A stretch of 64,000 bases of DNA from Dehalococcoidia bacterium (GTDB taxonomy: Bacteria > Chloroflexota > Dehalococcoidia > UBA2979). Every line of letters starts with the position of its first letter. Positions within the stretch are counted from its first letter, which is position 1. The stretch spans positions 608,001 to 672,000 of the forward strand of contig OZ219871.1 of the NCBI GenBank assembly GCA_964291495.2, given 5' to 3'. Of the stretch, positions 21,921 to 60,095 are shown piece by piece. The translations under genes and the position numbers were made by a program. The notes under the pieces were generated by a model. That model was not told the DNA's origin. It made no database searches and was given only the letters and a program-made list of their open reading frames with translations.

Positions 21921-21983
21921 TTGACAGTCAATGCCACTTTCGCGTACACAGGCCGTGACAGCGGCAAGAGCGAGCGCTCACTC
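21921..21983 (+). promoter_or_regulatory. Promoter TTGACA-N18-TACACA plus palindromic operator GAGCGAGCGCTCACTC (21968-21983)
   Basis: Read directly; the same architecture recurs at 8 other intergenic regions. Confidence 0.75.
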
Positions 21984-22039
21984 CTCGCGCGTGGGCGGGC
22001 GCTCGGCTGGTATCGCGGCGACTGGTACGGGGGTTTCAC

Positions 22040-23269
22040 ATGAGGTTCGGCATCTTCTACGAGCTGGCGGTTCCGAAACCATGGACTCCCGAGAGCGAAC
22101 TCGAGGTCTACCAGACCTCACTCGAGCAGGTGCGGCTCGCCGACGAGCTCGGGTTCGACTCCGTGTGGGCCGTCGAGCATCACTTCCTCGAGGAGTACTC
22201 GCACTGCTCTGCCTCGGATGTCTTCCTCACGGCGTGCGCCGCGCAGACGAAGAATATCCGCATCGGCTTCGGCATTCGCCTGCTGCTCCCGCCGTTCAAC
22301 CACCCGGTCCGCACGGCGGAGACGGCGGCCGCGATCGACCTGATCAGCAACGGGCGCCTCGAGTTCGGCACCGGCCGCTCCCAGACCTGGAACGAGCTGG
22401 GCGGCTTCCTCTGCGACCCCGACGACACCAAGGACATGTGGGCCGAGGCGGTCGAGGCGATCCCGAAGATGTGGAAGGAAGAGTACTTCTCCTGGGACGG
22501 CAAGTACTTCAACGTGCCGCCCCGCAACGTCCTCCCGAAGCCCCTGCAGAAGCCGCACCCGCCGATGTGGGTCGCGGTCAGCAGTCCCGAGACTGCCATC
22601 CAGGCGGGCGAGCGGGGCCTCGGAATGCTCGGCGTCAGCGGCGCCGCGCCCGAGGAGCAGGCGAAGCGGATCAACACCTACCGGGAGCTCGTCAGGAACT
22701 GCGAGCCGGTCGGCGACTTCGTGAACGAGCGGGTGGGGACGCTGAACTGGCTCCACTGCTCCGAGGATCCGGACGAGGCGGCGATGTACGGCCAGCAGCT
22801 GGTGCAGGGATTCAACCAGCTGAACGCGCACTTCGTCGCGATCCGGCAGGTCTACCCCACGCGCGTCTACCGCGCGCCAGGTGGCGGCGCCCGGGCGCGG
22901 CGCGACCGGCGAGGGGCCGCCTCCCAGCGCGCCGAGGCAGCGAAGCGGCCGGCAGGGGGCGGACTCGCCTCGGCGAGCCAGGCGGGCACGTTCCGCCGGG
23001 ACGACCTGGCGATCGGCACGCCCGACCAGATCATCAAGAACATGAAGCGCTGGGAGGAGATGGGCGTCGACCTCGTGACCTGTCTCGTCAGCGTCGGCAC
23101 GCTCGTGCCGCAGGAGAAGATCCTGAAGTCCCTCAAGCTCTTCGCGGAAGAGGTGATCCCGGCCTTCGACAAGGGCGAAGACGAGCCGAAGCCGTACGAC
23201 CCCCGGGCCCGGGCGGCGACGAACGGCCGGTCGGGGAGCAAGGCGAAGAAGGCCGCCGCGGCATCGTAA
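22040..23269 (+). CDS. LLM-class flavin-dependent oxidoreductase
   Basis: MRFGIFYEL, ADELGFDSVWAVEHH, GRLEFGTGR, PKPLQKPHPPMW. Confidence 0.93.
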   Translation: MRFGIFYELAVPKPWTPESELEVYQTSLEQVRLADELGFDSVWAVEHHFLEEYSHCSASDVFLTACAAQTKNIRIGFGIRLLLPPFNHPVRTAETAAAIDLISNGRLEFGTGRSQTWNELGGFLCDPDDTKDMWAEAVEAIPKMWKEEYFSWDGKYFNVPPRNVLPKPLQKPHPPMWVAVSSPETAIQAGERGLGMLGVSGAAPEEQAKRINTYRELVRNCEPVGDFVNERVGTLNWLHCSEDPDEAAMYGQQLVQGFNQLNAHFVAIRQVYPTRVYRAPGGGARARRDRRGAASQRAEAAKRPAGGGLASASQAGTFRRDDLAIGTPDQIIKNMKRWEEMGVDLVTCLVSVGTLVPQEKILKSLKLFAEEVIPAFDKGEDEPKPYDPRARAATNGRSGSKAKKAAAAS

Positions 23270-23305
23270 GGGCGATCGCGAGGACGCTGGAGGAAGGAGC
23301 CCGCA

Positions 23306-24049: not shown

Positions 24050-24090
24050 TCACGATTCGCCCGGCGGAGGCTCGATCGCGAGTGCCTGCG

Positions 24091-24196
24091 GAGACCTTCG
24101 CGTAACCCTCTCCTCGGGGCAGCGAGCGCATCCCCTCCGGTCCCCTCCCCAGGGGGAGGGGCCGGAGCGGGCTTGTGGGAGTTTCGCAAGGGTCTC
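24091..24196. mobile_element. 106-bp MITE-like element with imperfect TIRs and 5-bp CTGCG target duplication
   Basis: Left end GAGACCTTCGCGTAACCC, right end reverse complement GAGACCCTTGCGAAACTC; CTGCG at 24086-24090 and 24197-24201; related copy at 30757. Confidence 0.7.
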
Positions 24197-24208: not shown

Positions 24209-24865
24209 CTAGTCGTTCAGGTGGTCGAGTCCGCGCCGCAGCAGCGTGAACGCCTCGTCCAGCAGGTCGGCCGGGCGGTCCACGCCCCCGGCGTAGAGCC
24301 ACCGCCTGCGCATCGCGCGAATCGAGCCGACCACGGCGCCGGCGGCCAGCTGCGCGCGGGGGTCGTCCGGCTGTAGTCCGTACTCCTCGGCGATGACCGG
24401 CGCGAGGATGTCCTCGCGCTGCGCGTCGAGGGCAGCCATGCGCGCCGACAGCGCCGGGACCTCGAGCAGGAGCCTGCCGACGCGCACGTCGTAGTGCGGG
24501 TGCTCGTAACCCATGACGCGCAGCACGTCGCGCGAAGCGCGCCGCACGCGATCGACCAGGGTCTCGCCCGGAAACCGGGTCGCCAGTGACTCGCGGTAGG
24601 TCTCCGTGAGCTCGTCGCTGTCGAAGAAGATCACGTCTTCCTTGGACCTGAAGTAGCGGAAGTAGGTGCGCTCGGAGACACCGGCCTCGCTGGCGATCTC
24701 CTCGACGGTCGTCTCGTCGTAGCCGCGCTCCGAGAAGAGGCGGATGGCCGCCCGCGCCAGCCCCTCGCGCGTCCGCAGCTTCTTCTGCTCGCGCAGCGAG
24801 GCGGGCTTCGGCGTTCGCTTCCCGCCTCTCGGCGGGTCCGCTGTCTCGAGATGAGGTGATGGCAT
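24209..24865 (-). CDS. TetR/AcrR family transcriptional regulator
   Basis: LREQKKLRTREGLARAAIRLFSERGYDETTVEEIASEAGVSERTYFRYFRSKEDV. Confidence 0.93.
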   Translation of the reverse strand: MPSPHLETADPPRGGKRTPKPASLREQKKLRTREGLARAAIRLFSERGYDETTVEEIASEAGVSERTYFRYFRSKEDVIFFDSDELTETYRESLATRFPGETLVDRVRRASRDVLRVMGYEHPHYDVRVGRLLLEVPALSARMAALDAQREDILAPVIAEEYGLQPDDPRAQLAAGAVVGSIRAMRRRWLYAGGVDRPADLLDEAFTLLRRGLDHLND

Positions 24866-24962
24866 CACGCTCTCCAGGCGCGTGGCGAGGCTGCTCGCTA
24901 GAATCTTGTCACCCGCTGTCAAGTTTGGCAACACGCCGGGGCCGCGCGCCCGGCCCCTTCGC

Positions 24963-25023
24963 TTGACACCGGCGCCGAGGGTCGGGTACACGGTGGCGCA
25001 AGCGCGCGAGCGAGCGCTCACTC
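24963..25023 (+). promoter_or_regulatory. Promoter TTGACA-N18-TACACG plus operator GAGCGAGCGCTCACTC (25008-25023)
   Basis: Operator identical to the one at 21968. Confidence 0.75.
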
Positions 25024-25050: not shown

Positions 25051-26244
25051 ATGAGTCCGACCGGCCAGATCCTGGCTGACCTCAAGGTCATCGACCTGAC
25101 CACGAACGTGGCCGGACCGGTCGCAGCGCGCCTGTTCGGCGAGCTGGGCGCCGATGTGGTTCATGTCGAGCCGCCGCACGGAGACGACGGCCGCAACTCA
25201 ACGACGGCGTTCCTCGGACGTGAAGGCGTATTCCACTCCGTTGGGAACCGCAACAAGCGCGGCGTTGTGATCGACCTCAAGACACCACGCGGGTGCGAGG
25301 TCATGAAGAGCCTGCTCCAGCAGGCGGACTTCTTCGTCGAGAACATGACGAAGGGCACCCTCGATGACCTCGGGCTGGGCTGGGACACGCTGCACGCACT
25401 CAACCCGCGGCTGATCCAGATCTCAATCACCGGCTGGGGTCAGAGCGGCCCGCTCGCGTACGAGCCGGGGTACGACGTCCTCGTGCAGGCCTTCACGGGC
25501 GCCGTGCGGTCGGAGAACGGCGAGTTCCGCGCGCTGGGCGGGCTCCGCGGTGACCCGACGGCGCCGCTGCTGGGCGCCTTCGCCGCGATGGGCGCGCTCT
25601 ACGAGCGGGAACGAACCGGCAAAGGGGCGCTGGTCACCAGTTCCGTGCTGCAGGGCGCCGTCCACATGGCGGGCGCCGGCATGGTGATCGCGCACGACGA
25701 ACCCCCGAAGGAGGAGAACGGCCGTGGCCCGGTCGGCGGCCTCGGAGGGCTCGGCCCGTTCTGGGCAGCCGACGGGAAGGGCGTCTTCCTCTGCGCCTGG
25801 AACGACCGCCAGTTCGTCGATCTCTGCGACCTCGCGGGCTTCCCCGAGGTCGGCGCCGATCCGGCGTACGCCACCCGCTTCCTGAGGTCGGGAGAGAGCG
25901 GCGCGAGGCTGAACGCCCTCTTCGGAGAGTGGGTCGCCTCCAAGAATCGCGACGAGATCGTCGAGGAGATGCGCGCGCGGCGCATCCCCGTCTCGCCGGT
26001 CAATCAAACCCTCGACGAGCTGCAGGACGATCCGCACATCCTCGACAACGACCTGATCACCTCGCTCGATCATCCGACGAAGGGCCGCCTGAGCATGATC
26101 GGGGCGATGTACGAGATCGACGGGGACGGCCCGCAGTACCGGCCGGCCCCGCTGCTGGGCGAGCACACGGACGACGTGCTCGGGGACTACGGCTTCTCGC
26201 CGGAGCAGATCAGCGAGTTGCGGGAGTGCGGCGCGGTCGCCTGA
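25051..26244 (+). CDS. Family III CoA-transferase
   Basis: DLKVIDLTTNVAGP, LGADVVHVEPP, NRNKRGVVIDLK, APLLGEHT; AAGGAGG RBS. Confidence 0.92.
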   Translation: MSPTGQILADLKVIDLTTNVAGPVAARLFGELGADVVHVEPPHGDDGRNSTTAFLGREGVFHSVGNRNKRGVVIDLKTPRGCEVMKSLLQQADFFVENMTKGTLDDLGLGWDTLHALNPRLIQISITGWGQSGPLAYEPGYDVLVQAFTGAVRSENGEFRALGGLRGDPTAPLLGAFAAMGALYERERTGKGALVTSSVLQGAVHMAGAGMVIAHDEPPKEENGRGPVGGLGGLGPFWAADGKGVFLCAWNDRQFVDLCDLAGFPEVGADPAYATRFLRSGESGARLNALFGEWVASKNRDEIVEEMRARRIPVSPVNQTLDELQDDPHILDNDLITSLDHPTKGRLSMIGAMYEIDGDGPQYRPAPLLGEHTDDVLGDYGFSPEQISELRECGAVA

Positions 26245-26331
26245 GCGAGCGCGCCCGGCGTGCAGCCCGGACCGTTCGTAGCCGGCCTGTGATGCCCGGC
26301 CTCGCCCGTGACCGGACCTGGAGTGGCGACG

Positions 26332-28092
26332 ATGCCCGAGGTTGAGCCCGCGCGGCCGCGGCGACCGCGCCGCGTGCTCGTCGAGAAGAGCGTCACGGTC
26401 CCGCTCCGCGACGGGGTCAGAACCTACGGAGACCTCTACCGTCCCCTCGGGATCGGGCCCGTGCCGGCAGTGGTCTCTCGCACTCCGTACAACAAGGAGG
26501 TCGCCGGCCAGGGCGGTGGCGGCCTCTCCCCCCTCAAGTCCGCGGAACGTGGCTACGCGGTGCTCGTCGTCGACACGCGGGGTCGCGCCTCCTCGGAGGG
26601 CGAGTTCCGTCCGTTCGAGACCGAAGGCCCGGACGGCTACGACACGGTGGAGTGGGCGGCGGCGCAGCCATGGTGCGACGGGAACGTCGCGCTCCACGGC
26701 GGCTCCTACGGGGGTGTGACCGCCCTGCTGGGCGCGCGCGAGCGGCCACCCTCGCTTCGCTGCGTGGTCGCGACCAGCACCGGCGACGACTACTACGACG
26801 GCTGGATCTTCAGCGGCGGAGCCTTCCAGCTCGGGTTCGCGGCCACCTGGACGATGACCCTCGCCTCGACGAGCCTGATCCTGCGACCCGACTACGCTCG
26901 GCAGGTGACCGCCGAGCAGCAGGCGGAGCTGCGCCGCACCATCGCCGCCGGCCTCGAACCGCTGTGGACGCGGCCGCTCTCGGCGCTGGCGGGCATCTCG
27001 GCCGCGAACGTCGCGCCGTGGTGGGCGAGCTGGCTGGAGCACGAGCGGCGCGACGGCTACTGGGCGGACCTGAGCCCCAGCGGGCACTACGACTCGTTCG
27101 AGGTGCCCGTCCTGCACGTCGGCGGCTGGTTCGACGTCTTCGGAACGGGTGCGGTGCGGAACTACCAGGGCATCAGCGCCGCCGGCCGGACCGATCAGCT
27201 GCTGGTGGTCGGTCCCTGGGCGCACACCGAGTCCGGTCCCGCCCTGGGGGAGATGACGTTCGGACGCTCCGGAGCGCGAGAGGCGGCCGACATCGTCGGC
27301 GAGACCAACCGCTTCCTCGAGCGGCACCTGCGGCCGGGCAGGGAGGCCGCCCCCGCGAACGCCACCCCGGTGCGCTACTTCCTCATGGGCGCGAACGAGT
27401 GGCGGCTGGACAGCTCGTGGCCGCCCGCCGAGGCGCGCCCGAGGCGGCTCTACCTCGCGAGCGGCGGGAAGGCCAACACCCTGCACGGCGACGGCGCCCT
27501 GGTCGAGGCACCCCCAACAGAGGGGGCGGCCTCCGATCGCTACGTCTACGACCCGGACCAGCCCGTCGAGACCCACGGCGGCCCGATCGTCCACATGGCG
27601 ATCGGGCCGGCGGGCCCGCGCGATCAGCGTGAGATCGAGGCACGGGACGATGTGCTGTGCTACACGACGGCGCCGCTGGAGCAGCCCGTGACGATCGCGG
27701 GCCTCGTCCGCGCCAGCCTCTGGGCGGTGTCGGACTGCCCGGACACCGACTGGACGGCGAAGCTGGTCGAGGTGCTGCCGGACGGGCGCGCGGTAGGCAT
27801 CTGCGACGGGGTGATCCGCGCGCGCTTCCGGAACTCGCTGGAGGAGCCGCAGTTGCTCGAGCCGGGCAGGCCCGAGCGGTACGAGATCACGCTCGGCCAT
27901 CTGGCGCACCGCTTCGCGGCCGGTCATCGGGTGCGCCTCGAGATCTCAAGCTCGAACTTTCCGCGATTCGATCGGAACCCGAACACCGGCGAGCCGCTGG
28001 GCAGCGCCTCGACGGCGAGGATCGCCACGCAACACGTGCTCCACGACGAGTCGCACCACTCGTACCTCGAGTTCGACGCGCTGGCGGAGTAG
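26332..28092 (+). CDS. CocE/NonD family hydrolase
   Basis: PLRDGV, RTPYNK, DTRGRASSEG, GGSYGG, GGWFD, GPWAH, SSSNFPRFDRNPN. Confidence 0.92.
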   Translation: MPEVEPARPRRPRRVLVEKSVTVPLRDGVRTYGDLYRPLGIGPVPAVVSRTPYNKEVAGQGGGGLSPLKSAERGYAVLVVDTRGRASSEGEFRPFETEGPDGYDTVEWAAAQPWCDGNVALHGGSYGGVTALLGARERPPSLRCVVATSTGDDYYDGWIFSGGAFQLGFAATWTMTLASTSLILRPDYARQVTAEQQAELRRTIAAGLEPLWTRPLSALAGISAANVAPWWASWLEHERRDGYWADLSPSGHYDSFEVPVLHVGGWFDVFGTGAVRNYQGISAAGRTDQLLVVGPWAHTESGPALGEMTFGRSGAREAADIVGETNRFLERHLRPGREAAPANATPVRYFLMGANEWRLDSSWPPAEARPRRLYLASGGKANTLHGDGALVEAPPTEGAASDRYVYDPDQPVETHGGPIVHMAIGPAGPRDQREIEARDDVLCYTTAPLEQPVTIAGLVRASLWAVSDCPDTDWTAKLVEVLPDGRAVGICDGVIRARFRNSLEEPQLLEPGRPERYEITLGHLAHRFAAGHRVRLEISSSNFPRFDRNPNTGEPLGSASTARIATQHVLHDESHHSYLEFDALAE

Positions 28093-28120: not shown

Positions 28121-28184
28121 TTGACAGGGGAATCACGCCTTTGGTATCAAGAGGCCCCTCCCGCGAGCGAGCGAGTGCTCGCTT
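28121..28184 (+). promoter_or_regulatory. Promoter TTGACA-N18-TATCAA plus operator GAGCGAGTGCTCGCTT (28169-28184)
   Basis: Read directly. Confidence 0.72.
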
Positions 28185-28289
28185 GTGCCGCATTCGGGAG
28201 CGGGACCACAGGCGCCGGGGAGAGCCGGACGAGCCAGCGGCACGGTGCGCCCACGCACTCACCCGGGATACGAACCGAAAGGACCCAGC

Positions 28290-29048
28290 ATGGCAGAGCG
28301 AGAGCCCCTCGACGTTATTGACGCGATCTTCTCGACCCCGGCAATGCGCTACCTGAAGACCGATCCGATCCCCGACGAGATCATCTGGGCGATCCTCGAC
28401 GCTGCGATCCGGGCTCCCAGCGGGACGAACACCCAGCGCTGGGGCTGGATGGTCGTCCGCGACCAGGAGACGAAGAACGAGATCGCGAAGATCTACCGGG
28501 ACACCTGGGCCCGCGCGAACCGCATCGTGGGTCATGGCCCCGAGCGAACTCGCGACGAGGAGTTCACGGCGAACAAGAAGGTGGAGTTCGGCGCCGCGAA
28601 CTACAACTCCGTCGAGCACCTCGCCGACCACTTCGAGTACGCGCCGGTGCTGATTGTCCCCTTCATGATCCAGAGCGGGCTGCGACCGGGCGACGACCCC
28701 GACGCGGACCCCGTGGTCAGGCCGTTCCAGGGCAGTCCGCTCATGGGCGGCTCGATCTACCAGGCCGTCCAGAACATGCAGCTCGCGGCGCGCGCCTACG
28801 GCATCGGGAGCACCTACACGAGCGTGGCGAACACCGAGGAACACGAGCCGCGGATGAAGGAGTTGCTGGGGTTGCCCGTCAACACCCGCACGATGTGCAT
28901 CATCCCGCTCGGGTACCCGCTCGACGTCGATGAGCTGGCCGAGGTCGGCGCGAGCCCGGCCCGCGCCCGCTTCTTCAGGCCGAACCGCATCCCTGTCGAC
29001 GAGGTGACGCACTGGGATCGGTTCGGAGAGCAGATGGACCGCGAGTAG
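28290..29048 (+). CDS. Nitroreductase-family flavoprotein
   Basis: AMRYLKTDPIP, AAIRAPSGTNTQRW, SIYQAVQNMQLAARAYGIG, IPLGYP. Confidence 0.9.
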   Translation: MAEREPLDVIDAIFSTPAMRYLKTDPIPDEIIWAILDAAIRAPSGTNTQRWGWMVVRDQETKNEIAKIYRDTWARANRIVGHGPERTRDEEFTANKKVEFGAANYNSVEHLADHFEYAPVLIVPFMIQSGLRPGDDPDADPVVRPFQGSPLMGGSIYQAVQNMQLAARAYGIGSTYTSVANTEEHEPRMKELLGLPVNTRTMCIIPLGYPLDVDELAEVGASPARARFFRPNRIPVDEVTHWDRFGEQMDRE

Positions 29049-29214
29049 GCGGGATTCCCGGCGCGGACTGCGGCCGGCTTGCGGCCCCCGGCCGTGAGCG
29101 AACCGCGGTCCGCCCGTCATCGCCCACGGGCGCGCCGGCGCGCCGCAGCCCGTCGTGGGTCAGCCCGTTGAACATGCCGGGCTGCCCCGCGACGGGGGGA
29201 GCAAGGACATTCGC

Positions 29215-29910
29215 ATGGTGGACAGGGAGCCCCTCGACGTTCTCGAGGCGATTCACTCGACTCGCTCAATCCGGTTCCTCAAGCCGGACCCGATCCCGGA
29301 CGAGGTGATCTGGGCGATCCTCGATGCCGCGATCCGCGGGCCGAACGGGTCCAACATGCAGCGCTGGGGCTGGATCGTCGTCACGGATCCGGAGAAGAAG
29401 AAGAAGCTCGCGGACTTCTACCGGGACGGCTGGAACCTCGCGAATCGCGTCGACAAGCGAAGCCGCGAGGAGCGGTTCGCAATCGCGAGCACGAACCAGC
29501 TCGGTTACCAGGGCTACCTCGGTGTCGAGTACCTCGCCGACCACCTCGAGGACGCTCCGGTGTTCATCATTCCGGTGACGATCGGGGCGCGACCCAGCCT
29601 GCGGTCGGGGTCTTCGATTTACGGGGCCGTCCAGAACCTGCAACTCGCGGCGCGGGCGTTCGGCATCGGCACGACGTTCACGTCCGCACACGCGATCGAA
29701 GACCATGCCGAGGAGACGAGGGAGTTGCTCGGCCTGCCGGAGAACGCCGTCGACATGTGCCTGATTCCGCTCGGCTATCCGATGAGCGAAGAGGAGCTGG
29801 CGGCGGTGGGCGCGAGCCCGAACCAGGGCCGGTTCGGTGTCCCACGCCGCGTGCCGGTCGAGCAGGTGACGTACTGGGATTCCTGGGGCGAGCAGAAGGC
29901 GCGGACATGA
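29215..29910 (+). CDS. Nitroreductase-family flavoprotein (tandem paralog)
   Basis: RSIRFLKPDPIP, AAIRGPNGSNMQRW, SIYGAVQNLQLAARAFGIG, IPLGYP. Confidence 0.9.
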   Translation: MVDREPLDVLEAIHSTRSIRFLKPDPIPDEVIWAILDAAIRGPNGSNMQRWGWIVVTDPEKKKKLADFYRDGWNLANRVDKRSREERFAIASTNQLGYQGYLGVEYLADHLEDAPVFIIPVTIGARPSLRSGSSIYGAVQNLQLAARAFGIGTTFTSAHAIEDHAEETRELLGLPENAVDMCLIPLGYPMSEEELAAVGASPNQGRFGVPRRVPVEQVTYWDSWGEQKART

Positions 29911-30661: not shown

Positions 30662-30756
30662 GCCCGAGGTTCCCGCCCGCGCAAGTCTTCACCATCGCTC
30701 GCGGGCGTCGCAAGCCCGAGGCGCCGGCCGCTTGCACCGCTGATGCAGGGCCAGCG

Positions 30757-47294: not shown

Positions 47295-47314
47295 TCGATG
47301 GCCTGACCCGTTGG

Positions 47315-51226: not shown

Positions 51227-51332
51227 GTGCCCCGATGCGGCCTCGATCGCGCGGGAGCACGGGCGCGGATCGCCCACCGGCGGGCGGCAGGAACCGAACC
51301 TGGCAGGTACGCAGCAGAGTCCGGAGGGTGCA

Positions 51333-52559
51333 ATGGCGGATCAGCGACTCGCAGTTGTCGGCATCGGCGGCACTCCCTACGGCAACGCCGAGGGCTACCC
51401 GGTGACCAGCCTGCACGTGGAGGCGGCGAAGCGGGCGATGGACGACGCCGGCCTCAGCAAGCGCGACATCGACGGCCTCATCGTGTGCGACCACAGCCCG
51501 GACGTGAAGACGGCCTACCGCACCGCCGAGCACATGGGCATGGCCACCTGGCCGAAGCAGTTCCTGACGGCGGTGACCAACGGCGGCGTCGCCGCCGCGA
51601 TGGCCAACGATCTGGCGGCCCACGCCCTCAGGAGCGGCGAGGCCACCAACGTGCTCATCGTGGGCGGCGGGTCCGGGCGCGTGCGCCGCCAGGCGCAGGC
51701 GTCCCTAGCTCCCACGACCCCGGCCCAGTCCTATGTCGAGCGGGTCGCGGGACGCGGCCAGGAGACGATGTCCCTCGAGTTCGACGTGCCCTATGGCCCG
51801 TTCGGCGTCATCTCCTTCTACGCGCTGGCGGCCCAGCGCCACATGTACGAGTACGGCACGACCTCCGAGCAGATGGCGGCCGTCTCGGTGGCCTGTCGCA
51901 AGCACGCCTACATGAACCCCCGGGCCATGAAGCGAGAGCCGATCACGATCGATGACGTGATCAACTCGCCCTACATCTGCGAGCCGTTCCACCTGCTCGA
52001 CTGCTGCCTGCCCGCGGGCGGATCGGACGCCTACATCGTCACGACCGAGGACCGCGCGAGGGATCTGCGGCACCCGCCGATCTGGATGGACGGCATCGGG
52101 CACGCCCACTCGGCCTACCACACCGGGCTGCTCTGCACCCGCTCCGACTACGGGTTCGACATGATCCGGCAGGTGGGCAAGGTGGCGGGCGAACGCGCCT
52201 TCGCCCAGGCCGGGATCGAGCCCAAGGACGTCGACCTCGTGCAGCTGTACGACAGCTTCACCATGACCGTGCTGATGCAGCTCGAGGACTTCGGCTTCGC
52301 GCCCAAGGGCGAGGGCGGCCCCTTCGCCGAGGGCGGCCGCCTCGAGCTTGGAGGCGAGCTCCCGCTCAACACCAACGGCGGCATGCTCTCCATGGGTCAG
52401 TCCGGCGTGGGCTCCACGGTGATGTTCATGAACGAGGCCGTGGCGCAGCTGCGAGGAGACTGCGGCGAGCTGCAGGTCGCCGACGCCAAACACGCGCTGG
52501 TGGGCAGCGTCTCGGGCACCATGAGCAACTACGGCGCCACGATCTTCGCCGCCGACTGA
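51333..52559 (+). CDS. Thiolase-fold protein (no nucleophilic Cys)
   Basis: LAVVGIGGT, TNGGVAA, FHLLDCC, YDSFT, LNTNGGMLSMG; GGAGG RBS. Confidence 0.88.
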   Translation: MADQRLAVVGIGGTPYGNAEGYPVTSLHVEAAKRAMDDAGLSKRDIDGLIVCDHSPDVKTAYRTAEHMGMATWPKQFLTAVTNGGVAAAMANDLAAHALRSGEATNVLIVGGGSGRVRRQAQASLAPTTPAQSYVERVAGRGQETMSLEFDVPYGPFGVISFYALAAQRHMYEYGTTSEQMAAVSVACRKHAYMNPRAMKREPITIDDVINSPYICEPFHLLDCCLPAGGSDAYIVTTEDRARDLRHPPIWMDGIGHAHSAYHTGLLCTRSDYGFDMIRQVGKVAGERAFAQAGIEPKDVDLVQLYDSFTMTVLMQLEDFGFAPKGEGGPFAEGGRLELGGELPLNTNGGMLSMGQSGVGSTVMFMNEAVAQLRGDCGELQVADAKHALVGSVSGTMSNYGATIFAAD

Positions 52560-52614
52560 GGCGGTCGGCGGAAACACCAGCCACGGCCCGCGCGAGTAGC
52601 GAAACGGAAGAACG

Positions 52615-53061
52615 ATGGCGACCGACAGCGACGCAGGATCCGCCGAGTACCGCAGAGAGATCCCGATCCCCAGCCCCGTCTCGCAGCCCTACTGGGATGC
52701 CTGCCGGCGGCATGAACTGAGAGGGCAGCGCTGCCGCACGTGCAACTGGCTCTGGATGTATCCGAGCCGCATGTGCCACAACCCGGACTGCAACACCCTG
52801 GACGACTACGACTGGGAGCAACTGGCCGGGACCGGCACGGTCTGGACCTTCACCGTCAACCATCGCGCCCCCAACGCCGAGTGGGAGGACGACCTGCCCT
52901 ACGTCTTCGGAGTGATCGAGCTGGACGAGGGCGTCATGATCACCAGCAACGTGATCGGCTGCGACCCGAGCGAGGTGCACATCGGCATGCCCGTGGAGGT
53001 GGTCTTCGAGGACGTCTCCGACGAGATCTCCCTGCCGAAGTTCAGGCCGCGCTCGACCTGA
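52615..53061 (+). CDS. DUF35 Zn-ribbon/OB-fold protein
   Basis: PYWDA, CRTC...CHNPDC, PYVFGVIELDEG, IGMPVEVVF. Confidence 0.92.
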   Translation: MATDSDAGSAEYRREIPIPSPVSQPYWDACRRHELRGQRCRTCNWLWMYPSRMCHNPDCNTLDDYDWEQLAGTGTVWTFTVNHRAPNAEWEDDLPYVFGVIELDEGVMITSNVIGCDPSEVHIGMPVEVVFEDVSDEISLPKFRPRST

Positions 53062-53101
53062 CGCCGCGCGGACGGGACTGGGTAGGCCGGGCTGGGCGGC
53101 G

Positions 53102-54325
53102 CTAGTCGCGCTGCAGAATCGTGCACCCGAAGTTGGAGGCCACGCCCGAGGCGCCTCCGATGCAGACCATCGGCTTCTCCGCGGCCTGCCGCTCGCCCGC
53201 CTCGCCGCGCGCCTGCGAGATACCCTCGTACATTACCGCGAGGGTCCCGTTGCCCGACTGACCTTCCGAGAGCAGGCCGCCGTGCGTGTTGAGCGGCAAC
53301 TCGCCCCCGAGCTCGATGCGCCCGCCCTCGACGAAGGGACCGCCCTCGCCCTTCCCGCAGAAGCCGAAGTCCTCGATCGCCAGCAGGGCCGTGGTCGTGA
53401 AGCTGTCGTAGACCTGCAGACAGTCGATGTCGCTGCGCGAGACGCCGGCCTCGCCGAAGGCCTGGTCCCCGGCCATCTTGCCGACCGTCCGCACGATGTC
53501 GAAGCCCTCCGGAGACGGCGTACAGAGGTTGCCGACGTGGTAGTAGGACATGCCGTGCCCGGCCCCGAGGATCCAGACCGGAGGCTTTGGGCTGTCGTGC
53601 GCTCGCTCCTCCGAAGTCACGATGTAGGCGGTGGCAAAGCCGGGGGCGATGTAGGCGCAGTCGAGCAGGTGGTGCGGCCAGCTGATCCAGCGCGAGGTCA
53701 TGACATCCTCGATTGTGATCGGGTCGCGCAGGCAGGCGCGCTCGTTCATCGTCGCGTGCTTGCGGCAGGCCACGGCGATGGCCGCCAGTTGCTCGCTCGT
53801 GGTCCCGAACTCGTACATGTGCCTGGCCGCCACCGGGGCGTATATCGAATAGGCCCCACCCGTCCCGTAGGGCATCTCCCAGTCGTACGGGTGGGGGCTG
53901 CGCATCGACTCCCGGTAGGGCCGGACGGCGGCGCCGAAGGTGCGGCCGCGTCCGATGTAGTTTTCGCGGCCCCTGCCGCCGTCGAGCACCATCACGTAGT
54001 TGGCGAGGCCCTGCTCCAGATACCAGCGGGCCTGGTTGTTGGCGTAGCCGCTGCTCATCCCGCCGGTGTGCGGCAGGTCGATGACCTTCGCGTAGTTCCC
54101 GAAGCCCAGGTACTCGGCGAAGCGGTACTGCAACCTGGGGTCGGACCCGAATCCGGCCACCTGCGTGGTGATGATGCCGTCGATGTCGCTCTTCCGGAGG
54201 CCGGCGTCCTCGATAGCCGTCCTGGCTGCCCGGGCCAGCAGTTCGGGGACGGTGTGTCCTTCGACGTTGAAGCCGGTGGTCCGGGCCGCACCGACGATCG
54301 CCGCCTGTCTCGACAAGTTCGCCAT
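53102..54325 (-). CDS. Thiolase-fold protein (close paralog of 42927-44150)
   Basis: Long identical stretches shared with 42927-44150, e.g. QVAGFGSDPRLQYRFAEYLGFG. Confidence 0.9.
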   Translation of the reverse strand: MANLSRQAAIVGAARTTGFNVEGHTVPELLARAARTAIEDAGLRKSDIDGIITTQVAGFGSDPRLQYRFAEYLGFGNYAKVIDLPHTGGMSSGYANNQARWYLEQGLANYVMVLDGGRGRENYIGRGRTFGAAVRPYRESMRSPHPYDWEMPYGTGGAYSIYAPVAARHMYEFGTTSEQLAAIAVACRKHATMNERACLRDPITIEDVMTSRWISWPHHLLDCAYIAPGFATAYIVTSEERAHDSPKPPVWILGAGHGMSYYHVGNLCTPSPEGFDIVRTVGKMAGDQAFGEAGVSRSDIDCLQVYDSFTTTALLAIEDFGFCGKGEGGPFVEGGRIELGGELPLNTHGGLLSEGQSGNGTLAVMYEGISQARGEAGERQAAEKPMVCIGGASGVASNFGCTILQRD

Positions 54326-54373
54326 TGGTCTCCTCCGGTGGTGTGGGTCGCCGGTACGCGTGGCCGGGACAGG

Positions 54374-55648
54374 CTAGGCCACGGCGCCCGCTTCCCTGAG
54401 CGCCCCGATCTCGTCGTCGGAGAGACCCGCTTCGCGCAGGATCTCCTCGGTGTGCCGCCCCAGGACCGGAGCCGGGCCGGCGGGCCCCACGGCGGCCGCT
54501 GACATCTCGAAGATCCCGCTGAGCTGGCGCTGCGGGCCGGTCAGTTCGTCCTCGACCTCCACCATCAACTCGGCGGCCTGCGGGTCGTCGGCGACCTCCG
54601 CGGGCAGGAGCACGCGCGAGACCGGTACGCCGGCATCGAGCAGCTCGCTCAGGATCTCGTTCACGGTGCGGCGGCCGACCGCCTCGGCGATCGCCTGCCG
54701 GATTCCGAGGGAGCGCGCATGCACGGTCGGGTCGAGCGGATTGAAACCGGCGGCGTCGCCCCCGTCGTCCGGGATGCTCAGTACCTGGCGTGTCGCCGCG
54801 CGCATCCCCGGCGTGTACGCGCCGATGAAGACCGGTCCGTCCTTCGCCATGTATCCGCCCAGGAAGGGCCCGAAGATCGCCGCGAGGCTGGCCCGGGTCG
54901 CCTTGTAGCCGCGCAGCACGGAGCTGTAGTCGTCGCCCGCGGCGAAGCGCTCGTGCGCCTCCTCCAGGCTGTGGCCTTGCAGCACCGAATCGCTGACGGG
55001 CTCCTGCATGACCAGGCCGCCGATCATCACGATCGCGGACCGCAGCGAGGCCACGTCGACGAGCTGGCCCTCGCCGGACCGGGCGCGGTGGTAGAGCGCC
55101 GAGTTGACCCCGATGACCGCGGAGAGCCCGGTCGCGGCATCGATCGTCCCGCCGTGCGTGCCCATTGGCGCGCCGAACTCGTCGACGACGCCGAGCTCGG
55201 CCATGTAGCCGGAGTACGCCTGGGCGGCCAGGTCGGGCAGGGGCTCGTCCGCGCGCGGCCCGTGCCTCCCGAAGCCCGAGATCTGGACGTAGATCAGGTC
55301 CGGCCGCAGTCGCGAGAGGGTCTCGTAGTCGAGCTCCCGCTCGCGGACCGCAACCGGCCCAAGGTTGATGACGACGACGTCGAACGACGGGACGATGCGG
55401 TGGATCAGGGCGCGCCCCCGCGGGTCGTCGAGGTTCACGACCAGGCTGTGCTTGCCCCGGTTCAGGAACTGGAAGTCCTTGCTCGACCCGGCGGCCCCGT
55501 TCTCGCCACGTCGCATCGCGTCGCCGCCCGGAGGCTCGACCTTGACCACCTCCGCGCCGAGGTCCGCGAGCGTGCTGCCCGCCAGCGGTCCGGCGACGAC
55601 CTCGGAAAACTCGAGCACGCGCACGCCGTGGAGGGGACCTGGCGCCAT
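54374..55648 (-). CDS. Family III CoA-transferase (close paralog of 39394-40728)
   Basis: MAPGPLHGVRVLEFS, PMGTHGGTIDA, EDELTGPQRQL shared with the 39394 gene. Confidence 0.92.
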   Translation of the reverse strand: MAPGPLHGVRVLEFSEVVAGPLAGSTLADLGAEVVKVEPPGGDAMRRGENGAAGSSKDFQFLNRGKHSLVVNLDDPRGRALIHRIVPSFDVVVINLGPVAVRERELDYETLSRLRPDLIYVQISGFGRHGPRADEPLPDLAAQAYSGYMAELGVVDEFGAPMGTHGGTIDAATGLSAVIGVNSALYHRARSGEGQLVDVASLRSAIVMIGGLVMQEPVSDSVLQGHSLEEAHERFAAGDDYSSVLRGYKATRASLAAIFGPFLGGYMAKDGPVFIGAYTPGMRAATRQVLSIPDDGGDAAGFNPLDPTVHARSLGIRQAIAEAVGRRTVNEILSELLDAGVPVSRVLLPAEVADDPQAAELMVEVEDELTGPQRQLSGIFEMSAAAVGPAGPAPVLGRHTEEILREAGLSDDEIGALREAGAVA

Positions 55649-55843
55649 GGTCGGCTCCCCCTTGCTAGCGGCGCCGTCCGCCGGGCGGCGGCGAATTCCA
55701 CGCTCGAGTCGCCACCAGGAATCTATCGAGGCAGCGCTCGCTCGCCAACCCAACCCGCGTCACCGGAGGTCAGGCCGGTTCCGCCGACGAGGCCGCGGGC
55801 CCAGCCTGCGTCGGCAGCACGGTGGATGCCCGGACCGAAGTGA

Positions 55844-57514
55844 CTAGAACGCGACCGTCTGCTGGTACTCGCCGAAGGCGCGCCGCATCACGCCCATGAT
55901 CTCGCCGAGCGTGGCGTAGGCGTTCACCGCGTCGAGGAGGCTCGGCATCACGTTGGTGTGCGGGTCGGCGCAGGCCTGCTCGAGCGCCCGCAGCGTGTCC
56001 GCGACCTGCTGCTGGTCGCGCTCGGCTCGCACGCGGTTGAGCCGCGTCATGTGGCGCTCGAAGCTCTCCTCGTTGATGCGGATCGTGGGCACCCCCGTGT
56101 CGTCGTCCATCAGGTACTCGTTCACGCCCACGATGACGCGCTCGCGCGCCTCGATCTCCTGCTGGTAGCGCCAGGCCGCCTCGGCGATCTCGCGGTGGAA
56201 GAACCCGGTTTCGAGGGCGCTGACGACGCCGCCGAGGTCGTCGATCTTGTCGAAGTAGCGGAGGCACTCGCGCTCCATCTCGTCGGTCAGCGCCTCGACG
56301 AAGTAGCTGCCGCCGAGCGGATCGACGGTGTTGGTGGCGCCGGACTCGTGGAGGAGCACCTGCTGGGTGCGGAGGGCGAGGCGGGCTGCCTCGTCGGAGG
56401 GCAGCGCGAGCGCCTCGTCCAGGGAGTTCGTGTGCAGGCTCTGCGTCCCGCCGAGCGCGGCCGCGAGCGACTGCACGGTCGAGCGCACGATGTTCACCTC
56501 GGGCTGCTGCTTGGTAAGCGAGCAGCCGGCGGTCTGCGCGTGGAAGCGCATCCAGAGGCTGCGCTCGTTCTTCGCGCCGAAGCGCTCCTTCATCACCCGC
56601 GACCAGATCCGGCGGGCCGCGCGCAGCTTCGCAATCTCCTCGAAGAAGTCGTTGTGGATGTTGAAGAAGAACGAGATGCGAGGCGCGATCGCGTCCACAT
56701 CGAGGCCGCGGTCGACGCACCACTGGACGTACTCGATCCCGTCCCGCAGCGTGAACGCCAGCTCCTGCGCCGCCGTCGAACCCGCTTCGCGGATGTGGTA
56801 GCCGGAGACGGAGATGCTGTTCCACTTCGGCATCTGCTCGCTGGCGAACTCGATGGTGTCGACCACCAGGCGCATCGAGGGTTCCGGCGGGAAGACGAAC
56901 TCGTTCTGGGCGATGTACTCCTTGAGGATGTCGTTCTGCAGCGTGCCGCCGAGCTCGCTGCGCGGTACGCCCGCCTTCTCCGCCGTCGCGATGTACATCG
57001 CCCAGATCACGGGCGCTGGCGAGTTGATCGTCATTGAGGTGGTGATCTGGTCGAGGGCGATCCCGTCGAACAGCACCTCCATGTCGGCGAGCGAGGACAC
57101 GCCGACGCCGCAGTGGCCGAACTCTCCCGCCGCCCACTCGTCGTCCGCGTCGTAGCCCATCAGCGTCGGCATGTCGAAGGCGACGGAGAGCCCCGTCTCG
57201 CCATGATCGAGCAGGTAGCGGTAACGCTCGTTGGTCTCCTCGGCGGAGCCGAACCCGGCGAACATGCGGATCGTCCAGGGCTTGCCGCGGTAGCCGGTGG
57301 GGTGGATGCCGCGTGTGAACGGATACTCGCCGGGGTTGCCGAGATCCTCGCTGTAGCTCAAGTCCGGGATGTCGACGGGGCTGTAGAGGCGCTCGACCGG
57401 GTGACTCGATGTCGTCATGAACGGGCCGGGAAGCTCGCGCCCGCTCGTGCGGACGCGCTCCTCGTACTCCGCCCGGCGTGACGCGAGCTCCTCCGGCGAG
57501 TCGACATCAGGCAC
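55844..57514 (-). CDS. Methylmalonyl-CoA mutase family large (substrate-binding) subunit with isobutyryl-CoA-mutase-type signature
   Basis: [60 protein letters not shown]; no DxHxxG B12 domain. Confidence 0.92.
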
Positions 57515-57572: not shown

Positions 57573-57621
57573 GAGTGAGCGTCCGCTCGTGATTCTCGGC
57601 GGGCCCGTTGGAGTGTGTCAA
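57573..57621 (-). promoter_or_regulatory. Promoter TTGACA-N18-GAGAAT plus operator GAGCGGACGCTCACTC (57573-57588)
   Basis: Read directly on the minus strand, upstream of the mutase gene. Confidence 0.65.
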
Positions 57622-57787
57622 GCAGCGCTCTTCGGCGGCGACACGACCGGCGGGAATGCTGCGGCATGAGCGAGTTGGCGGCAACCTTGGCGGCAGGCAT
57701 CCAGCGTTGTTGGCGCGGTCCGAAGTCCGGGCGGACCAGGGCTCTCGCCGACCGGCGGCAGCCCCTCGGCGAGCCGCACCTCGAGGG

Positions 57788-57856: not shown

Positions 57857-57993
57857 CGTCTGCGGCCGCCGTGAAGACGTACTCCCGCGTCGCCCAGGCC
57901 GCGCGAAGATGGACCTCGACGCAGCCGCTACGTATTGTCACTGCGGGCGCAAGCGCGAGGCCGCCGCGTTCGAGCATCGAAGGAGATGCAGTC

Positions 57994-59226
57994 ATGAAGT
58001 CCTTCCAGTTCCATCTCATGCCCTACCCGTATCTGCCTGGCACCGACCGCGAGTTCACGGACACGTACTCCAGCACCTGGGTGGACCTCCCGAACGAGCT
58101 CTTCGACAGCGAGCGCGGGCCGGGGGTCTACCGGTCCTACCTCCAGGACCTGGTCTGGGCGGAGCAGGTGGGGTTGGACGGCGTCGTGGTGAACGAGCAC
58201 CACCAGAACGCCTACGGCATCATGCCGTCGCCCAACCTGATCGCCGCCGCGCTCTCGCAGATCACGTCGCGCGTCAAGGTCGCCGTCCTCGGTAACGCGG
58301 TGCCGCTGCTGGAGGAGCCGCAGAAGATCGCGGAAGAGTTCGCGATGCTCGATCAACTGCTCGACGGGCGCTTCATCGGCGGGCTCGTGATTGGCACGGG
58401 GATGGAGTACTACTCCTACGGCACCAACCCCACGTTCGCGCGCGAGAAGTACCGCGAGGGCCTGGCGCTGATCCTGCAAGCGTGGACCCAGCCCGGGCCG
58501 ACGCAGTTCCACGGCGAGCACTTCCAGAACGCCTACCTCAATCCCTGGCCACGCCCGAAACAGCAGCCGCACCCGCCGATCTGGGTGCCCGGCGGGACCA
58601 GCCTCGAGACGATGGAGCTTTGCGTCGACAACGACTTCACGTACTGCATTACCGTGAACCCGGCGAAGGACGGATTGCGGGCTGCGGCGGAGACCTACCA
58701 GAAGGTGTTCGAGGACCGCGGCAAGCCCTACAACCCGGACAAGCTCGCCTGGCTGGTGCCGACCTACGTCACCACCTCGAGCGAGGCCGCCGAGGAAGAG
58801 GCGCACGACTCGTATCGCTACTTCACACGCCGCCTGCTGCTCGGGTTCGGCGGCGACGGGCGCGTCTGGACGGCTCCCGGCTACACCTCCGAGCGGTCTC
58901 GCGCCTCGTCGGGCGAGCGGATGAGGCAGATCATGGCGGGCCGCGGCGAGGGCCGCCCGGTCTGGGACGACCTCGACAACGGTGGGGTGATCCTGACCGG
59001 AAGCCCGGAGAAGGTGACGAACGAGTTCGTCGAACTCTGCACCGACTACGGGGTCGGCCACATCCTGCACCTCTTCCGCTTCGGGAACCTGCCCGAGGAC
59101 CTGGGCAGGCGAAGCGTGAAGATGTACGCAGAGGAGTGCCTGCCGACGATCCGCGAGCAGGTCGACAAGAATCTCAAGCAGAAGTGGCCCGCCTACACCG
59201 GCGAGGGCGCGGAGTGGAACTTCTAG
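57994..59226 (+). CDS. LLM-class flavin-dependent oxidoreductase
   Basis: FHLMPY, AEQVGLDGVVVNEHHQ, IAEEFAMLD, WPRPKQQPHPPIW; AAGGAG RBS. Confidence 0.92.
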   Translation: MKSFQFHLMPYPYLPGTDREFTDTYSSTWVDLPNELFDSERGPGVYRSYLQDLVWAEQVGLDGVVVNEHHQNAYGIMPSPNLIAAALSQITSRVKVAVLGNAVPLLEEPQKIAEEFAMLDQLLDGRFIGGLVIGTGMEYYSYGTNPTFAREKYREGLALILQAWTQPGPTQFHGEHFQNAYLNPWPRPKQQPHPPIWVPGGTSLETMELCVDNDFTYCITVNPAKDGLRAAAETYQKVFEDRGKPYNPDKLAWLVPTYVTTSSEAAEEEAHDSYRYFTRRLLLGFGGDGRVWTAPGYTSERSRASSGERMRQIMAGRGEGRPVWDDLDNGGVILTGSPEKVTNEFVELCTDYGVGHILHLFRFGNLPEDLGRRSVKMYAEECLPTIREQVDKNLKQKWPAYTGEGAEWNF

Positions 59227-59258
59227 GCGCCCTCGCGGCGCGCTGAGCGGGGGATGCG

Positions 59259-60095
59259 GTGGCACTCACACAGGAGACGATCCAGGTCGCGGACATTGAG
59301 ATCGGCGCGGCGAGGGCCGGGAACGGCGACACCGTGGTCTATCTGCACGACATCCTCGGAGACATCCACGGTCAACCGGAGGGTACTGAGGACAGCCTCC
59401 GCTTCCTCGAGAAGCTGTCCGAGCGCTTCGACGTGATCGCACCGGCGATCCCCGGCTACCGCGCCTCGCTTGAGGCTCAGGAAGCCGTCTACGACCTCGA
59501 GGACATGGCGCTGATCTTCGACGACCTTCTGGCGTCGCTCGGCAGCGGGAAGGCTTCGGTCGTCGGGCTCGGCCTCGGTGGCTGGGTGGCCGCCGAAGTG
59601 GCCACACGCAACCCGGAGCGCATCGGGAAGCTCGTGTTGATCTCACCCGCCGGCATCTCGCTTCCGGAGACCCCGATCAACCGCCTGATCTTCCCCGCCT
59701 TCAGCCCTCGCGCACGGTCGGGGTTCGGCGAGATGCGCACGCTGCTGTTCGGCGACCCGGAATCGGAGTTCGCCAAGCGGCTGATTCCGGACCCGCCCGG
59801 CCTCAGCCCCGAGTGGCAGCAGACGATGCGTTACTGCGCCAAGGGATCGGCACGCATCGGCTGGAAGCCCCAGTTCCTGTACAACCGCCGGCTCCCGCAG
59901 CGGCTGCGGCGCGTGACCGCCGACACGATGATCATCGCCTCGCGCACGGACGAGCTTGTACCGTTCGAGAACTTCCAGACGTACGTTGACGGCATCGCGG
60001 GCGCCGAGCTGGTCGAGATGGAGGGCAGCCATATGCTCCCGTTCGACCATCCCGACGAGGTAGCTGCGAACGTCGCGGAGTTCGTCAGTGGCTAG
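59259..60095 (+). CDS. Alpha/beta hydrolase-fold protein lacking the nucleophilic Ser
   Basis: VYLHD, PAIPGY, elbow GLGLGG, DELVP, SHM. Confidence 0.85.
   Translation: MALTQETIQVADIEIGAARAGNGDTVVYLHDILGDIHGQPEGTEDSLRFLEKLSERFDVIAPAIPGYRASLEAQEAVYDLEDMALIFDDLLASLGSGKASVVGLGLGGWVAAEVATRNPERIGKLVLISPAGISLPETPINRLIFPAFSPRARSGFGEMRTLLFGDPESEFAKRLIPDPPGLSPEWQQTMRYCAKGSARIGWKPQFLYNRRLPQRLRRVTADTMIIASRTDELVPFENFQTYVDGIAGAELVEMEGSHMLPFDHPDEVAANVAEFVSG

Follow-up and report, generated by a model that had tools for sequence, protein, structure and literature searches.

A candidate TetR-controlled catabolic island with thiolase-fold/DUF35 proteins and an ICM-type mutase in a Dehalococcoidia genome

Gene content and shared operator of the island

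We describe a candidate TetR-controlled catabolic island at positions 21921-60095 of a 64,000-nt window from the genome of a Dehalococcoidia bacterium (UBA2979; GCA_964291495.2, contig OZ219871.1, positions 608001-672000), in which seven units are preceded by a common palindromic operator. The contig is C5 of the assembly designated G000, which comprises 3.08 Mb in 8 contigs at 71% GC and is 93.7% complete; its nearest public relatives are metagenome-assembled genomes titled Dehalococcoidia or Chloroflexi bacterium. Because the GC content of the genome is high, open reading frames (ORFs) were kept only if they showed strong third-position GC, and were then scanned with Pfam and NCBIfam. The 31 ORFs supported in this way within the span encode four luciferase-like monooxygenases (LLMs), one acetoacetate decarboxylase (ADC)-family protein, two TetR regulators, four family III CoA-transferases, two CocE/NonD hydrolases, two nitroreductase-fold flavoproteins, five thiolase-like proteins, four DUF35 proteins, two alpha/beta hydrolases, a DUF3179 protein, one large subunit of the methylmalonyl-CoA mutase (MCM) family, and an SBP_bac_5 binding protein with OppB- and OppC-like permeases, an inventory that agrees with the initial annotation of the span. 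From left to right, the genes are LLM1, ADC, TetR1, CoAT1, CocE1, NR1, NR2, hyp30110, CocE2, LLM2, CoAT2, Thl1, DUF35_1, TetR2, LLM3, CoAT3, DUF35_2, Thl2, DUF35_3, Thl3, ABH1, the OppC-like and OppB-like permeases, SBP_bac_5, DUF3179, Thl4, DUF35_4, Thl5, CoAT4, the mutase, LLM4 and ABH2. The catabolic block measures roughly 36 kb, and the operator-defined set comprises about 19 genes.

The operator is a 16-bp palindrome, RAGYGAGCGCTCRCTC, located just 3' of TTGACA-type promoters. A palindrome search of intergenic DNA returned an identical 16-mer at 21968 and 25008 and variants at 28169, 35436, 38097/38101, 44219 and 57573, all seven sites being intergenic. The first unit consists of LLM1 (22040-23269, +; 186 bits to its family profile and 130 bits to 7bip) and the only ADC-family gene of the genome (23306-24049, +). 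Its promoter and operator at 21921-21983 (+; -35 TTGACA at 21921; operator GAGCGAGCGCTCACTC at 21968-21983) are invariant in six of six genomes, and the -35 box is the very position at which the initial annotation had begun the system. CoAT1 (25051-26244, +; family III CoA-transferase, 307 bits) and CocE1 (26308-28092, +; TIGR00976, 454 bits) follow the second site (24963-25023, +; -35 at 24963, operator 25008-25023), which is divergent from TetR1 (24209-25021, -), a regulator with an MftR-like C-terminal domain whose real start is probably downstream of 25021. The third site (28121-28184, +; -35 at 28121, operator 28169-28184) precedes NR1 (28185-29048, +; start probably near 28290 by alignment with relatives) and its tandem paralog NR2 (29155-29910, +; about 77% nucleotide identity).

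On the opposite strand, the fourth site (35436-35495, -; operator 35436-35451, -35 at 35490) serves CoAT2 (34078-35256, -; family III CoA-transferase, start revised to about 35256), the LuxA-like LLM2 (32729-34036, -; profile and structure matches), CocE2 (30966-32654, -) and, as last gene of the unit, hyp30110 (30110-30661, -), a hypothetical protein with a weak DUF7124 match that is kept in relatives. The fifth (38061-38116, +; -35 at 38061, operator 38097-38116) is embedded in a near-perfect 30-bp palindrome between LLM3 (38115-39377, +) and TetR2 (37396-38025, -), which by profile match is a TetR protein weakly resembling Bacillus FadR (52 bits). At the sixth (44219-44263, -; -35 at 44259), the operator (44219-44234) lies directly 3' of the -10 box of the operon Thl3-DUF35_3-Thl2-DUF35_2-CoAT3 (39394-44204, -) and is divergent from the alpha/beta hydrolase ABH1 (44373-45176, +; profile match). 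The seventh (57573-57626, -; -35 at 57621) has its operator (57573-57588) directly 3' of the -10 hexamer GAGAAT of the mutase gene (55844-57514, -). The -35 boxes of this genome lie 25-48 nt upstream of the operators. In this classic arrangement, the repressor site would overlap the position where transcription starts.

The pattern GAGCGAGCGCTCACTC with up to three mismatches was found 18 times in the window against an expectation of 4.42 +/- 2.43, and none of 100 shuffles reached 18. Allowing up to two substitutions, the idealised palindrome occurs at 28 sites genome-wide, six of them within a 34-kb stretch of the island. A matrix was built from eight window sites (the seven above and one at 55728); the ten best genome scores belong to those eight (one in two registers) and to C5:768409, a ranking that is circular for its own training sites. 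The weak site at 55728, before CoAT4, scores 18.2 in G000 and is absent from five relatives, and was not counted as an operator. At C5:768409, 96 kb from the window, a perfect 24-bp palindrome that includes the operator separates an OppB-like (Opp-type) permease gene from an operon of SBP_bac_5, enoyl-CoA hydratase (ECH) and two CoA-transferase genes, with a FecCD-type transporter nearby. This locus, a possible further member of the regulon, is kept together with its site in G014 (score 19.9) and without a site scoring at least 14 in G011; G012 has it only in part, and G009 and G001 lack it.

When 18 genomes of the genus were searched at the DNA level, six (G001, G002, G009, G011, G012 and G014) gave multi-unit matches at 80-93% identity, and the others only paralog-level matches (about 70-75%) or LLM3 alone. 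When 55-60 kb around the island were compared in five of the six island-bearing relatives (290 kb in total), all seven units were present in each, at 70-98% protein identity and each with its operator; the units are arranged in different orders and orientations, and the 290 kb contained no further operator match scoring at least 16. Alignment of five promoter regions from six genomes showed a -35 box (TTGACA or TTGACG), about 17 nt of spacer, a hexamer resembling a -10 box and the operator 3' of it to be kept, the other intergenic DNA having diverged. Because promoter and operator are retained though the units are ordered and oriented differently between genomes, and because the block is inherited whole, co-regulation of the island, as originally proposed, is well supported at the level of sequence. 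The accompanying expectation of co-conservation was likewise borne out, the block being present or absent as a whole and found in six of 18 congeners. What this describes is a shared palindromic operator at promoters, kept in relatives and beside regulator genes, as in a TetR-repressed regulon.

The initial annotation's operator-linked set holds for the seven units and is to be narrowed elsewhere, the importer, Thl4/DUF35_4, Thl5/CoAT4 and LLM4/ABH2 being without a conserved operator. The genes of the SBP_bac_5 protein and the two permeases (45213-49183, -), which include no ATPase gene, accompany the island in five of five relatives, as do other genes without an operator. To their right lie DUF3179 (49263-51110, +; profile match), Thl4 with DUF35_4 (51225-53061, +), and CoAT4-Thl5 (53102-55753, -), recent duplicates of CoAT3 (about 80% nucleotide identity) and Thl3 (86%). 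LLM4-ABH2 (57871-60095, +) is missing from the islands of relatives and has no promoter/operator pair of its own, and for these reasons probably stands outside the regulon. Thl1 (35614-36855, +; start probably near 35677) follows TetR2 on the same strand in G014 and G011 and adjoins it on the opposite strand in G012.

Two sponge-metagenome runs from different studies contain contigs that cover several kb of the island, one of 5792 nt with 290 differing letters over 40669-46054 and one of 5141 nt with 279. A run from an RNA library (X23, also a sponge metagenome) holds contigs of 250-470 nt with 4-31 differing letters each that touch hyp30110, CoAT2, TetR2, LLM3, CoAT3, DUF35_2 and Thl2/DUF35_3; DNA carry-over is possible, and these were not counted as transcription.

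Catalytic residues and genomic context of the encoded enzymes

Nucleophile columns were compared for the six thiolase-like proteins of the window, five of which lie in the span, and hold Gly, Leu, His, Thr, His or a gap; Cys occurs in none. In PDB alignments, the nucleophilic Cys of 7yvy (EAACASGG) and that of BbsB stand opposite Thr or Gly of Thl4. Since the nucleophilic Cys is missing, none of these proteins can act as a thiolase. An SCP-x or canonical thiolase identity was rejected, the window proteins having no N-terminal nucleophilic Cys of the C[AS]SG type. The initial annotation had likewise noted no Cys-containing thiolase in the window, and the three strong Thiolase_N matches of the assembly all lie elsewhere.

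Two solved aldolases offer a standard for the remaining catalytic positions. As described in PMC12329534, TcLtp2 uses Y294-D-H-F together with Tyr344, and replacement of its His296 had only a 14-fold effect; CtSal uses Y302-D-C304-Y with Gln352, and its C304S variant had no detectable activity. Thl1 aligns with 6ok1 (267 bits), reading VYENF against LYDHF and AECYMHG against GEAYIHG, with Gly in the nucleophile column, so that both Ltp2 tyrosines are kept and His296 is replaced by Asn. By these residues Thl1 is classed as Ltp2-like, and the adjoining DUF35_1 gene (36879-37337, +; zinc ribbon and OB fold by profile match) is suggestive of an Ltp2-like complex. Thl3, Thl4 and Thl5 carry YDSF with Gln in the Tyr344 column, and Thl2 carries NDSF and misses the base Tyr. 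An Ltp2- or Sal-type aldolase was rejected for Thl2-Thl5, which possess neither the Tyr344 nor the Sal Cys304 general acid. Because the general-acid residues of both solved aldolases are missing, and in Thl2 also the base Tyr, lyase activity of Thl2-Thl5 is putative; they belong to an uncharacterised thiolase-fold type, the closest solved structure being 4u4e, labelled just "Thiolase". The earlier proposal of Ltp2-DUF35 retro-aldolases is thus sustained by residues for Thl1 and not for the YDSF/Gln and NDSF proteins.

A MAFFT alignment of the 34 thiolase-fold proteins of the genome sorted them into 11 with Tyr/Tyr (Ltp2-like), five with YDCY/Gln (Sal-like), four with YDSF/Gln, six with YDGF/Arg, four with His and four others. 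All 34 lack Cys in the nucleophile column, in a stretch that aligns poorly and where one paralog has Cys one residue earlier. Three YDGF/Arg genes stand in tandem at C5:577628-581600.

The mutase gene encodes a large subunit of 556 aa without a B12-binding domain. Its motifs WTIRMFAGF and EYIAQNEF (AQNEFVF) place Phe and Gln where MCM has Tyr and Arg; human MCM and the two other large subunits of the genome (C6:458125 and C5:1514376) read RQYAGF and ..R.TYIF. Aligned with the IcmF of a same-class genome, a reference that passes its NCBIfam equivalog cut-off (1812 vs 1500 bits), Phe falls on Phe and Gln on Gln at 34% overall identity. We take the specificity residues to be those numbered Tyr89/Arg207 and Ile90/Asp117. 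The Phe and Gln of the window protein support its classification as an isobutyryl-CoA mutase (ICM)-type enzyme, as the initial annotation had it, and its gene stands under the shared operator only in this genus. Two other identities were rejected. The best PDB match is HcmA (534 bits), and against a 2-hydroxyisobutyryl-CoA mutase speak Phe at the HcmA Ile (Tyr89 position) and Ala at the Asp of GISTDFD in comparison with 4r3u; against an MCM speak Phe/Gln in place of Tyr/Arg and an NF006944 score of 630 bits against a cut-off of 876.

No B12-binding gene was found near the mutase, and the assembly has a single PF02310 gene (C6:456296-456787), which together with its only MeaB gene lies beside the MCM operon at C6:455450-459663. 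The mutase would therefore have to use a B12 subunit encoded elsewhere, unless its own gene is unassembled. Among 80 loci found with a mutase of this clade, 78 carry Phe and Gln, a figure biased by one search peptide that contained RMF, and only two have a small-subunit gene within the compared flanks. The operator was checked at 18 of the 80: it is intact upstream of six of the seven genes with a product of 90% identity or more, carries a one-base change at the remaining one (L004; score 11.3 vs 17.8), and is absent at all 11 more distant loci (best scores at most 9.5). L004, in a same-genus genome, holds the mutase only, with no other island gene within 10 kb on either side by tblastn with the window proteins. 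At 12 loci outside the genus, the mutase is flanked by housekeeping genes without a relation to it or by ordinary genes of fatty-acid and branched-chain metabolism, for example E2, acyl-CoA dehydrogenase (ACAD), mutase and thiolase at L080, or thiolase, SDR and ECH at L038; these surroundings give no support to an old link between mutase and island. With the operator present only at near-identical loci and unrelated neighbours at distant ones, the link appears recent, and the clade looks like a general Chloroflexota ICM placed by this genus under the island operator. In another Chloroflexota genome, an IcmF-like frame (G033:C22:108412-111114) is broken by two in-frame TAG codons.

CocE2 is a full-length relative of the Rhodococcus cocaine esterase (383 bits, E 3e-113), which makes ester hydrolysis a sound call. 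The nearest solved structures of LLM1 and LLM2 are FMN-type luciferase-like enzymes; LLM1 matches 3,6-DKCMO, one of the diketocamphane monooxygenases that exemplify type II (two-component) Baeyer-Villiger enzymes, at only 28 bits, its best matches being generic luciferase-like enzymes. LLM3 leans to an F420-type subfamily and stays below its cut-off (TIGR03619, 132 vs 167 bits), and CofE is present in the genome, so that not every LLM need be an oxygenase. Vibrio luciferase reductases share the nitroreductase fold. Given this fold, the operator that NR1 and NR2 share with the other units, and the fact that no ORF scanned in the span matched the Flavin_Reduct family, we infer a role as NAD(P)H:flavin reductase for NR1 and NR2, the regulon offering no other candidate.

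Among solved structures, the nearest to the binding protein are an uncharacterised one and the agrocinopine protein AccA (80-108 bits), matches that point to no ligand. A complete Opp/Dpp-type ABC importer was rejected: SBP_bac_5 and two permeases are present, but the Pfam and NCBIfam scans found no ABC ATPase (ABC_tran) gene in 21921-60095. The binding-protein gene (-) contains, in its 5' part, an imperfect 39-nt tandem repeat (48947-49042) whose translation would be a low-complexity linker following the N-terminus. A 70-nt intergenic repeat (24081-24150 and 30747-30816, 94% identical) was rejected as an island element by blastn, which found dozens of copies genome-wide; it is a dispersed element resembling a repetitive extragenic palindrome or a miniature inverted-repeat transposable element and ends in a CCCCTCCCC/GGGGAGGGG hairpin.

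Several island genes are duplicates, with nucleotide identities of 86% for Thl3/Thl5, about 80% for CoAT3/CoAT4, 77% for NR1/NR2 and 74% for CocE1/CocE2. The segment 39393-44204 is recently duplicated with respect to 53073-55753, and NR1/NR2 and CocE1/CocE2 are older duplicates.

The same families are abundant outside the island. In the 3.08 Mb, tblastn with the window proteins found about 126 family III CoA-transferase loci (about one per 24 kb), 52 LLM, 34 thiolase-like, 29 DUF35, 52 ECH and 31 ACAD loci, and rarer families represented by one ADC, three CocE (two in the island) and seven nitroreductase-fold loci. A thiolase-like gene adjoins 25 of the 29 DUF35 genes, a CoA-transferase lies within 5 kb of 19 and an LLM within 10 kb of 19, and the module of CoA-transferase, thiolase-like, DUF35 and LLM genes is repeated about 17-25 times. 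One such module occupies the left flank of the window (175-6669), with two CoA-transferases, a DUF35 protein, an Ltp2-like thiolase-fold protein (YDNF and Tyr) and an LLM, and has no operator. The assembly contains only four AMP-binding ligases and three strong canonical thiolases, and CoA transfer seems almost wholly to have replaced ATP-dependent activation. The initial annotation correctly noted that the window holds no acyl-CoA ligase, the four AMP-binding genes all lying elsewhere. With the families expanded and ligases few across the genome, neither the composition of the island nor its lack of a ligase is specific to it; what sets the island apart is its operator, its inheritance as a block and its single-copy or rare members (ADC, CocE and the mutase).

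Proposed route and alternative explanations

We propose, with a probability of roughly 60%, that the locus is a genus-restricted accessory catabolic island under operator control with the following enzyme route. One or both island TetRs would most likely bind the operator at the seven sigma-70-type promoters, directly 3' of the -10 box, and would most likely be released by an acyl-CoA or the substrate itself. LLM1 and LLM2 would carry out oxygenation or a Baeyer-Villiger insertion with reduced flavin supplied by NR1 and NR2, after which the two CocE-type enzymes, together with ABH1 beside its operator, would hydrolyse esters to carboxylic acids that family III CoA-transferases could activate without ATP. 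The thiolase-fold/DUF35 proteins would most likely act as lyases in C-C cleavage, with Thl1 of the Ltp2 retro-aldol type and Thl3 and Thl2 of the uncharacterised type. Decarboxylation would fall to the ADC-type decarboxylase, and the ICM-type mutase, borrowing the B12-binding subunit and MeaB from the MCM operon on the other contig, would isomerise a short branched acyl-CoA. Gene content, residues, operator conservation and block-wise presence are direct observations, whereas the identity of the repressor, the order of reactions, the flavin-reductase role, the lyase activity and the substrate class are inferred. A branched or alicyclic substrate is chemically reasonable; the substrate class and a single linear pathway are hypotheses. 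Because several island genes are recent duplicates, the data suggest not one linear route but several modules working in parallel on a set of related substrates.

Several observations weigh against this proposal. On the regulatory side, TetR1 and TetR2 share 25% identity over 79 residues, which bears on which of them would bind the operator. No operator-like site was found at the importer block (45213-49183), DUF3179, Thl4/DUF35_4 or Thl5 (best intergenic position weight matrix scores of -23 to 3.3), and the operator nearest to Thl1 in this genome (35436) faces CoAT2, the Thl1 start being about 240 nt away and without a recognisable -35. On the enzymatic side, NR1 and NR2 match nitroreductase, NADH-oxidase, BluB, IYD and NfsA/Frp-type proteins just weakly; in Thl3-Thl5, Ser stands at the position of the Cys required by CtSal and Gln at that of the Ltp2 Tyr; and no hydratase or acyl-CoA dehydrogenase that could make a 3-hydroxyacyl-CoA is encoded in the island. 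A single B12-binding gene would have to serve three large subunits (two Tyr/Arg MCM-type and one Phe/Gln), and the mutase may be a housekeeping ICM that came to this position only later, its clade being widespread in Chloroflexota in other contexts. The huge genome-wide expansion of the enzyme families also favours a generalist toolbox.

That last point leads to the explanation that competes most closely, which we consider possible but clearly less probable: the units would be co-repressed, redundant modules acting in parallel on many loosely related acids, with no single chain of reactions. It draws on the recent duplicates within the island (Thl3/Thl5, CoAT3/CoAT4, NR1/NR2 and CocE1/CocE2), on the similar modules across the genome, where 25 of 29 DUF35 genes stand beside a thiolase-like gene and CoA-transferases number about 126, and on its fit to the paralog-expansion scheme for SAR202 in Landry et al. 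(PMC5395668). The single-copy ADC, mutase and hyp30110 genes, under the shared operator in six of six genomes, are a better fit to a defined route. We regard as improbable a biosynthetic island in which thiolase-fold/DUF35 pairs condense units, ICM supplies butyryl- or isobutyryl-CoA, and a NonD-like hydrolase and LLMs tailor the product. DUF35 proteins do occur in C-C-forming complexes, PhlABC and archaeal thiolase/HMG-CoA synthase are among the PDB matches, and ICM has been credited with supplying building blocks of polyketide antibiotics in Streptomyces; but the island has no PKS, NRPS or KAS-III partner, its thiolase-folds lack the acyl-accepting Cys, and a binding-protein importer, esterases, a decarboxylase and TetR repression suggest catabolism. 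Least credible of all is that expanded paralogs lie side by side by chance and the palindromes are ordinary GC-rich sequence, as the high family densities and near-palindromes rich in GC such as GCGCGAGCGCTCGC elsewhere in the genome might suggest, since no shuffle reached the observed count, the sites are all promoter-proximal, and seven of seven are kept in five genomes that are not near-clonal (protein identity 70-98%) despite diverged flanks and reshuffled units.

We would classify the island as a catabolic regulon of the TetR type within a Chloroflexota genome rich in paralogs; its unusual members are uncharacterised thiolase-fold/DUF35 lyase candidates and a recruited ICM-type mutase. 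A more far-reaching form of the proposal is offered tentatively, and as a whole we think it doubtful: sponge-associated Dehalococcoidia may inducibly dismantle ester-bearing alicyclic or quaternary-carbon compounds without ATP, through flavin-dependent oxygen insertion, CocE hydrolysis, CoA transfer, a new YDSF/Gln lyase class lacking both known general acids, and an ICM-type mutase that shares one B12 subunit and MeaB with two MCM paralogs. Chloroflexota rich in LLMs and CoA-transferases are thought to consume recalcitrant organic matter, and no substrate, regulon or inducer has yet been tied to such genes. The island is a bounded, conserved gene set with two candidate ligand-sensing TetRs and a linked binding protein, through which substrates of the paralogs could be tested without culture; if an ATP-free alicyclic or quaternary-carbon route is real, these proteins would be direct handles on the natural substrate of SAR202-style expansions. 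It also draws attention to thiolase-fold/DUF35 proteins that fit neither solved aldolase, to an ICM-type mutase in a catabolic regulon, and to a genome in which CoA-transferases have almost replaced ligases.

Comparison with known systems

Within a catabolic regulon, TetR repressors such as KstR/KstR2 and CamR act on palindromes placed at numerous promoters; the operator sequence and gene set of the island differ from theirs. In benzylsuccinate beta-oxidation (Bbs), a family III CoA-transferase works with a thiolase-fold/DUF35 pair, but by alignment BbsB keeps its catalytic Cys, unlike the island proteins. Two-subunit ICM carries its B12 domain on a polypeptide other than the large subunit. 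The window mutase resembles ICM and IcmF in its Phe/Gln pair and two-subunit ICM in its separate B12 domain, and differs in reading RMF rather than RQF, in its 34% identity to IcmF and in having no adjacent small subunit.

The steroid aldolases TcLtp2-ChsH2 and CtSal-Shy (PMC12329534; PDB 6ok1 and 9myr) likewise have no nucleophilic Cys and a DUF35 partner. The island DUF35 proteins are free-standing and not fused to a MaoC hydratase, Thl2-Thl5 have no counterpart of either general acid, the Tyr of Ltp2 or the Cys of Sal, and the window showed no genes for degrading steroid rings.

The nearest published scheme is that for SAR202, in which LLM Baeyer-Villiger oxygenation is followed by lactone or ester hydrolysis, ATP-free CoA transfer of the CaiB/BaiF type and then oxidation (Landry et al. 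2017, PMC5395668). The two have in common a Chloroflexota host and large paralog families of FMN/F420 LLMs and CaiB/BaiF-type CoA-transferases. The scheme derives from genome-wide counts, in contrast to the defined regulon described here with its operator, thiolase-fold/DUF35 proteins, ADC and ICM-type mutase; the text of the paper never mentions thiolase, DUF35 or nitroreductase, and the sole mutase it names is MCM. Among the papers listed by full-text searches of an open-access library, judged by title and abstract, none described a DUF35 cluster of this sort in Chloroflexota or SAR202, and thiolases in SAR202 brought up a single paper, which is unrelated. The initial view that no pathway with this combination had been described must therefore be divided: its LLM, esterase and CoA-transfer part has been published for SAR202 (PMC5395668), and its thiolase-fold/DUF35 and ICM parts, which appear neither in that text nor in the open-access literature searched, are what the island would add to the scheme.

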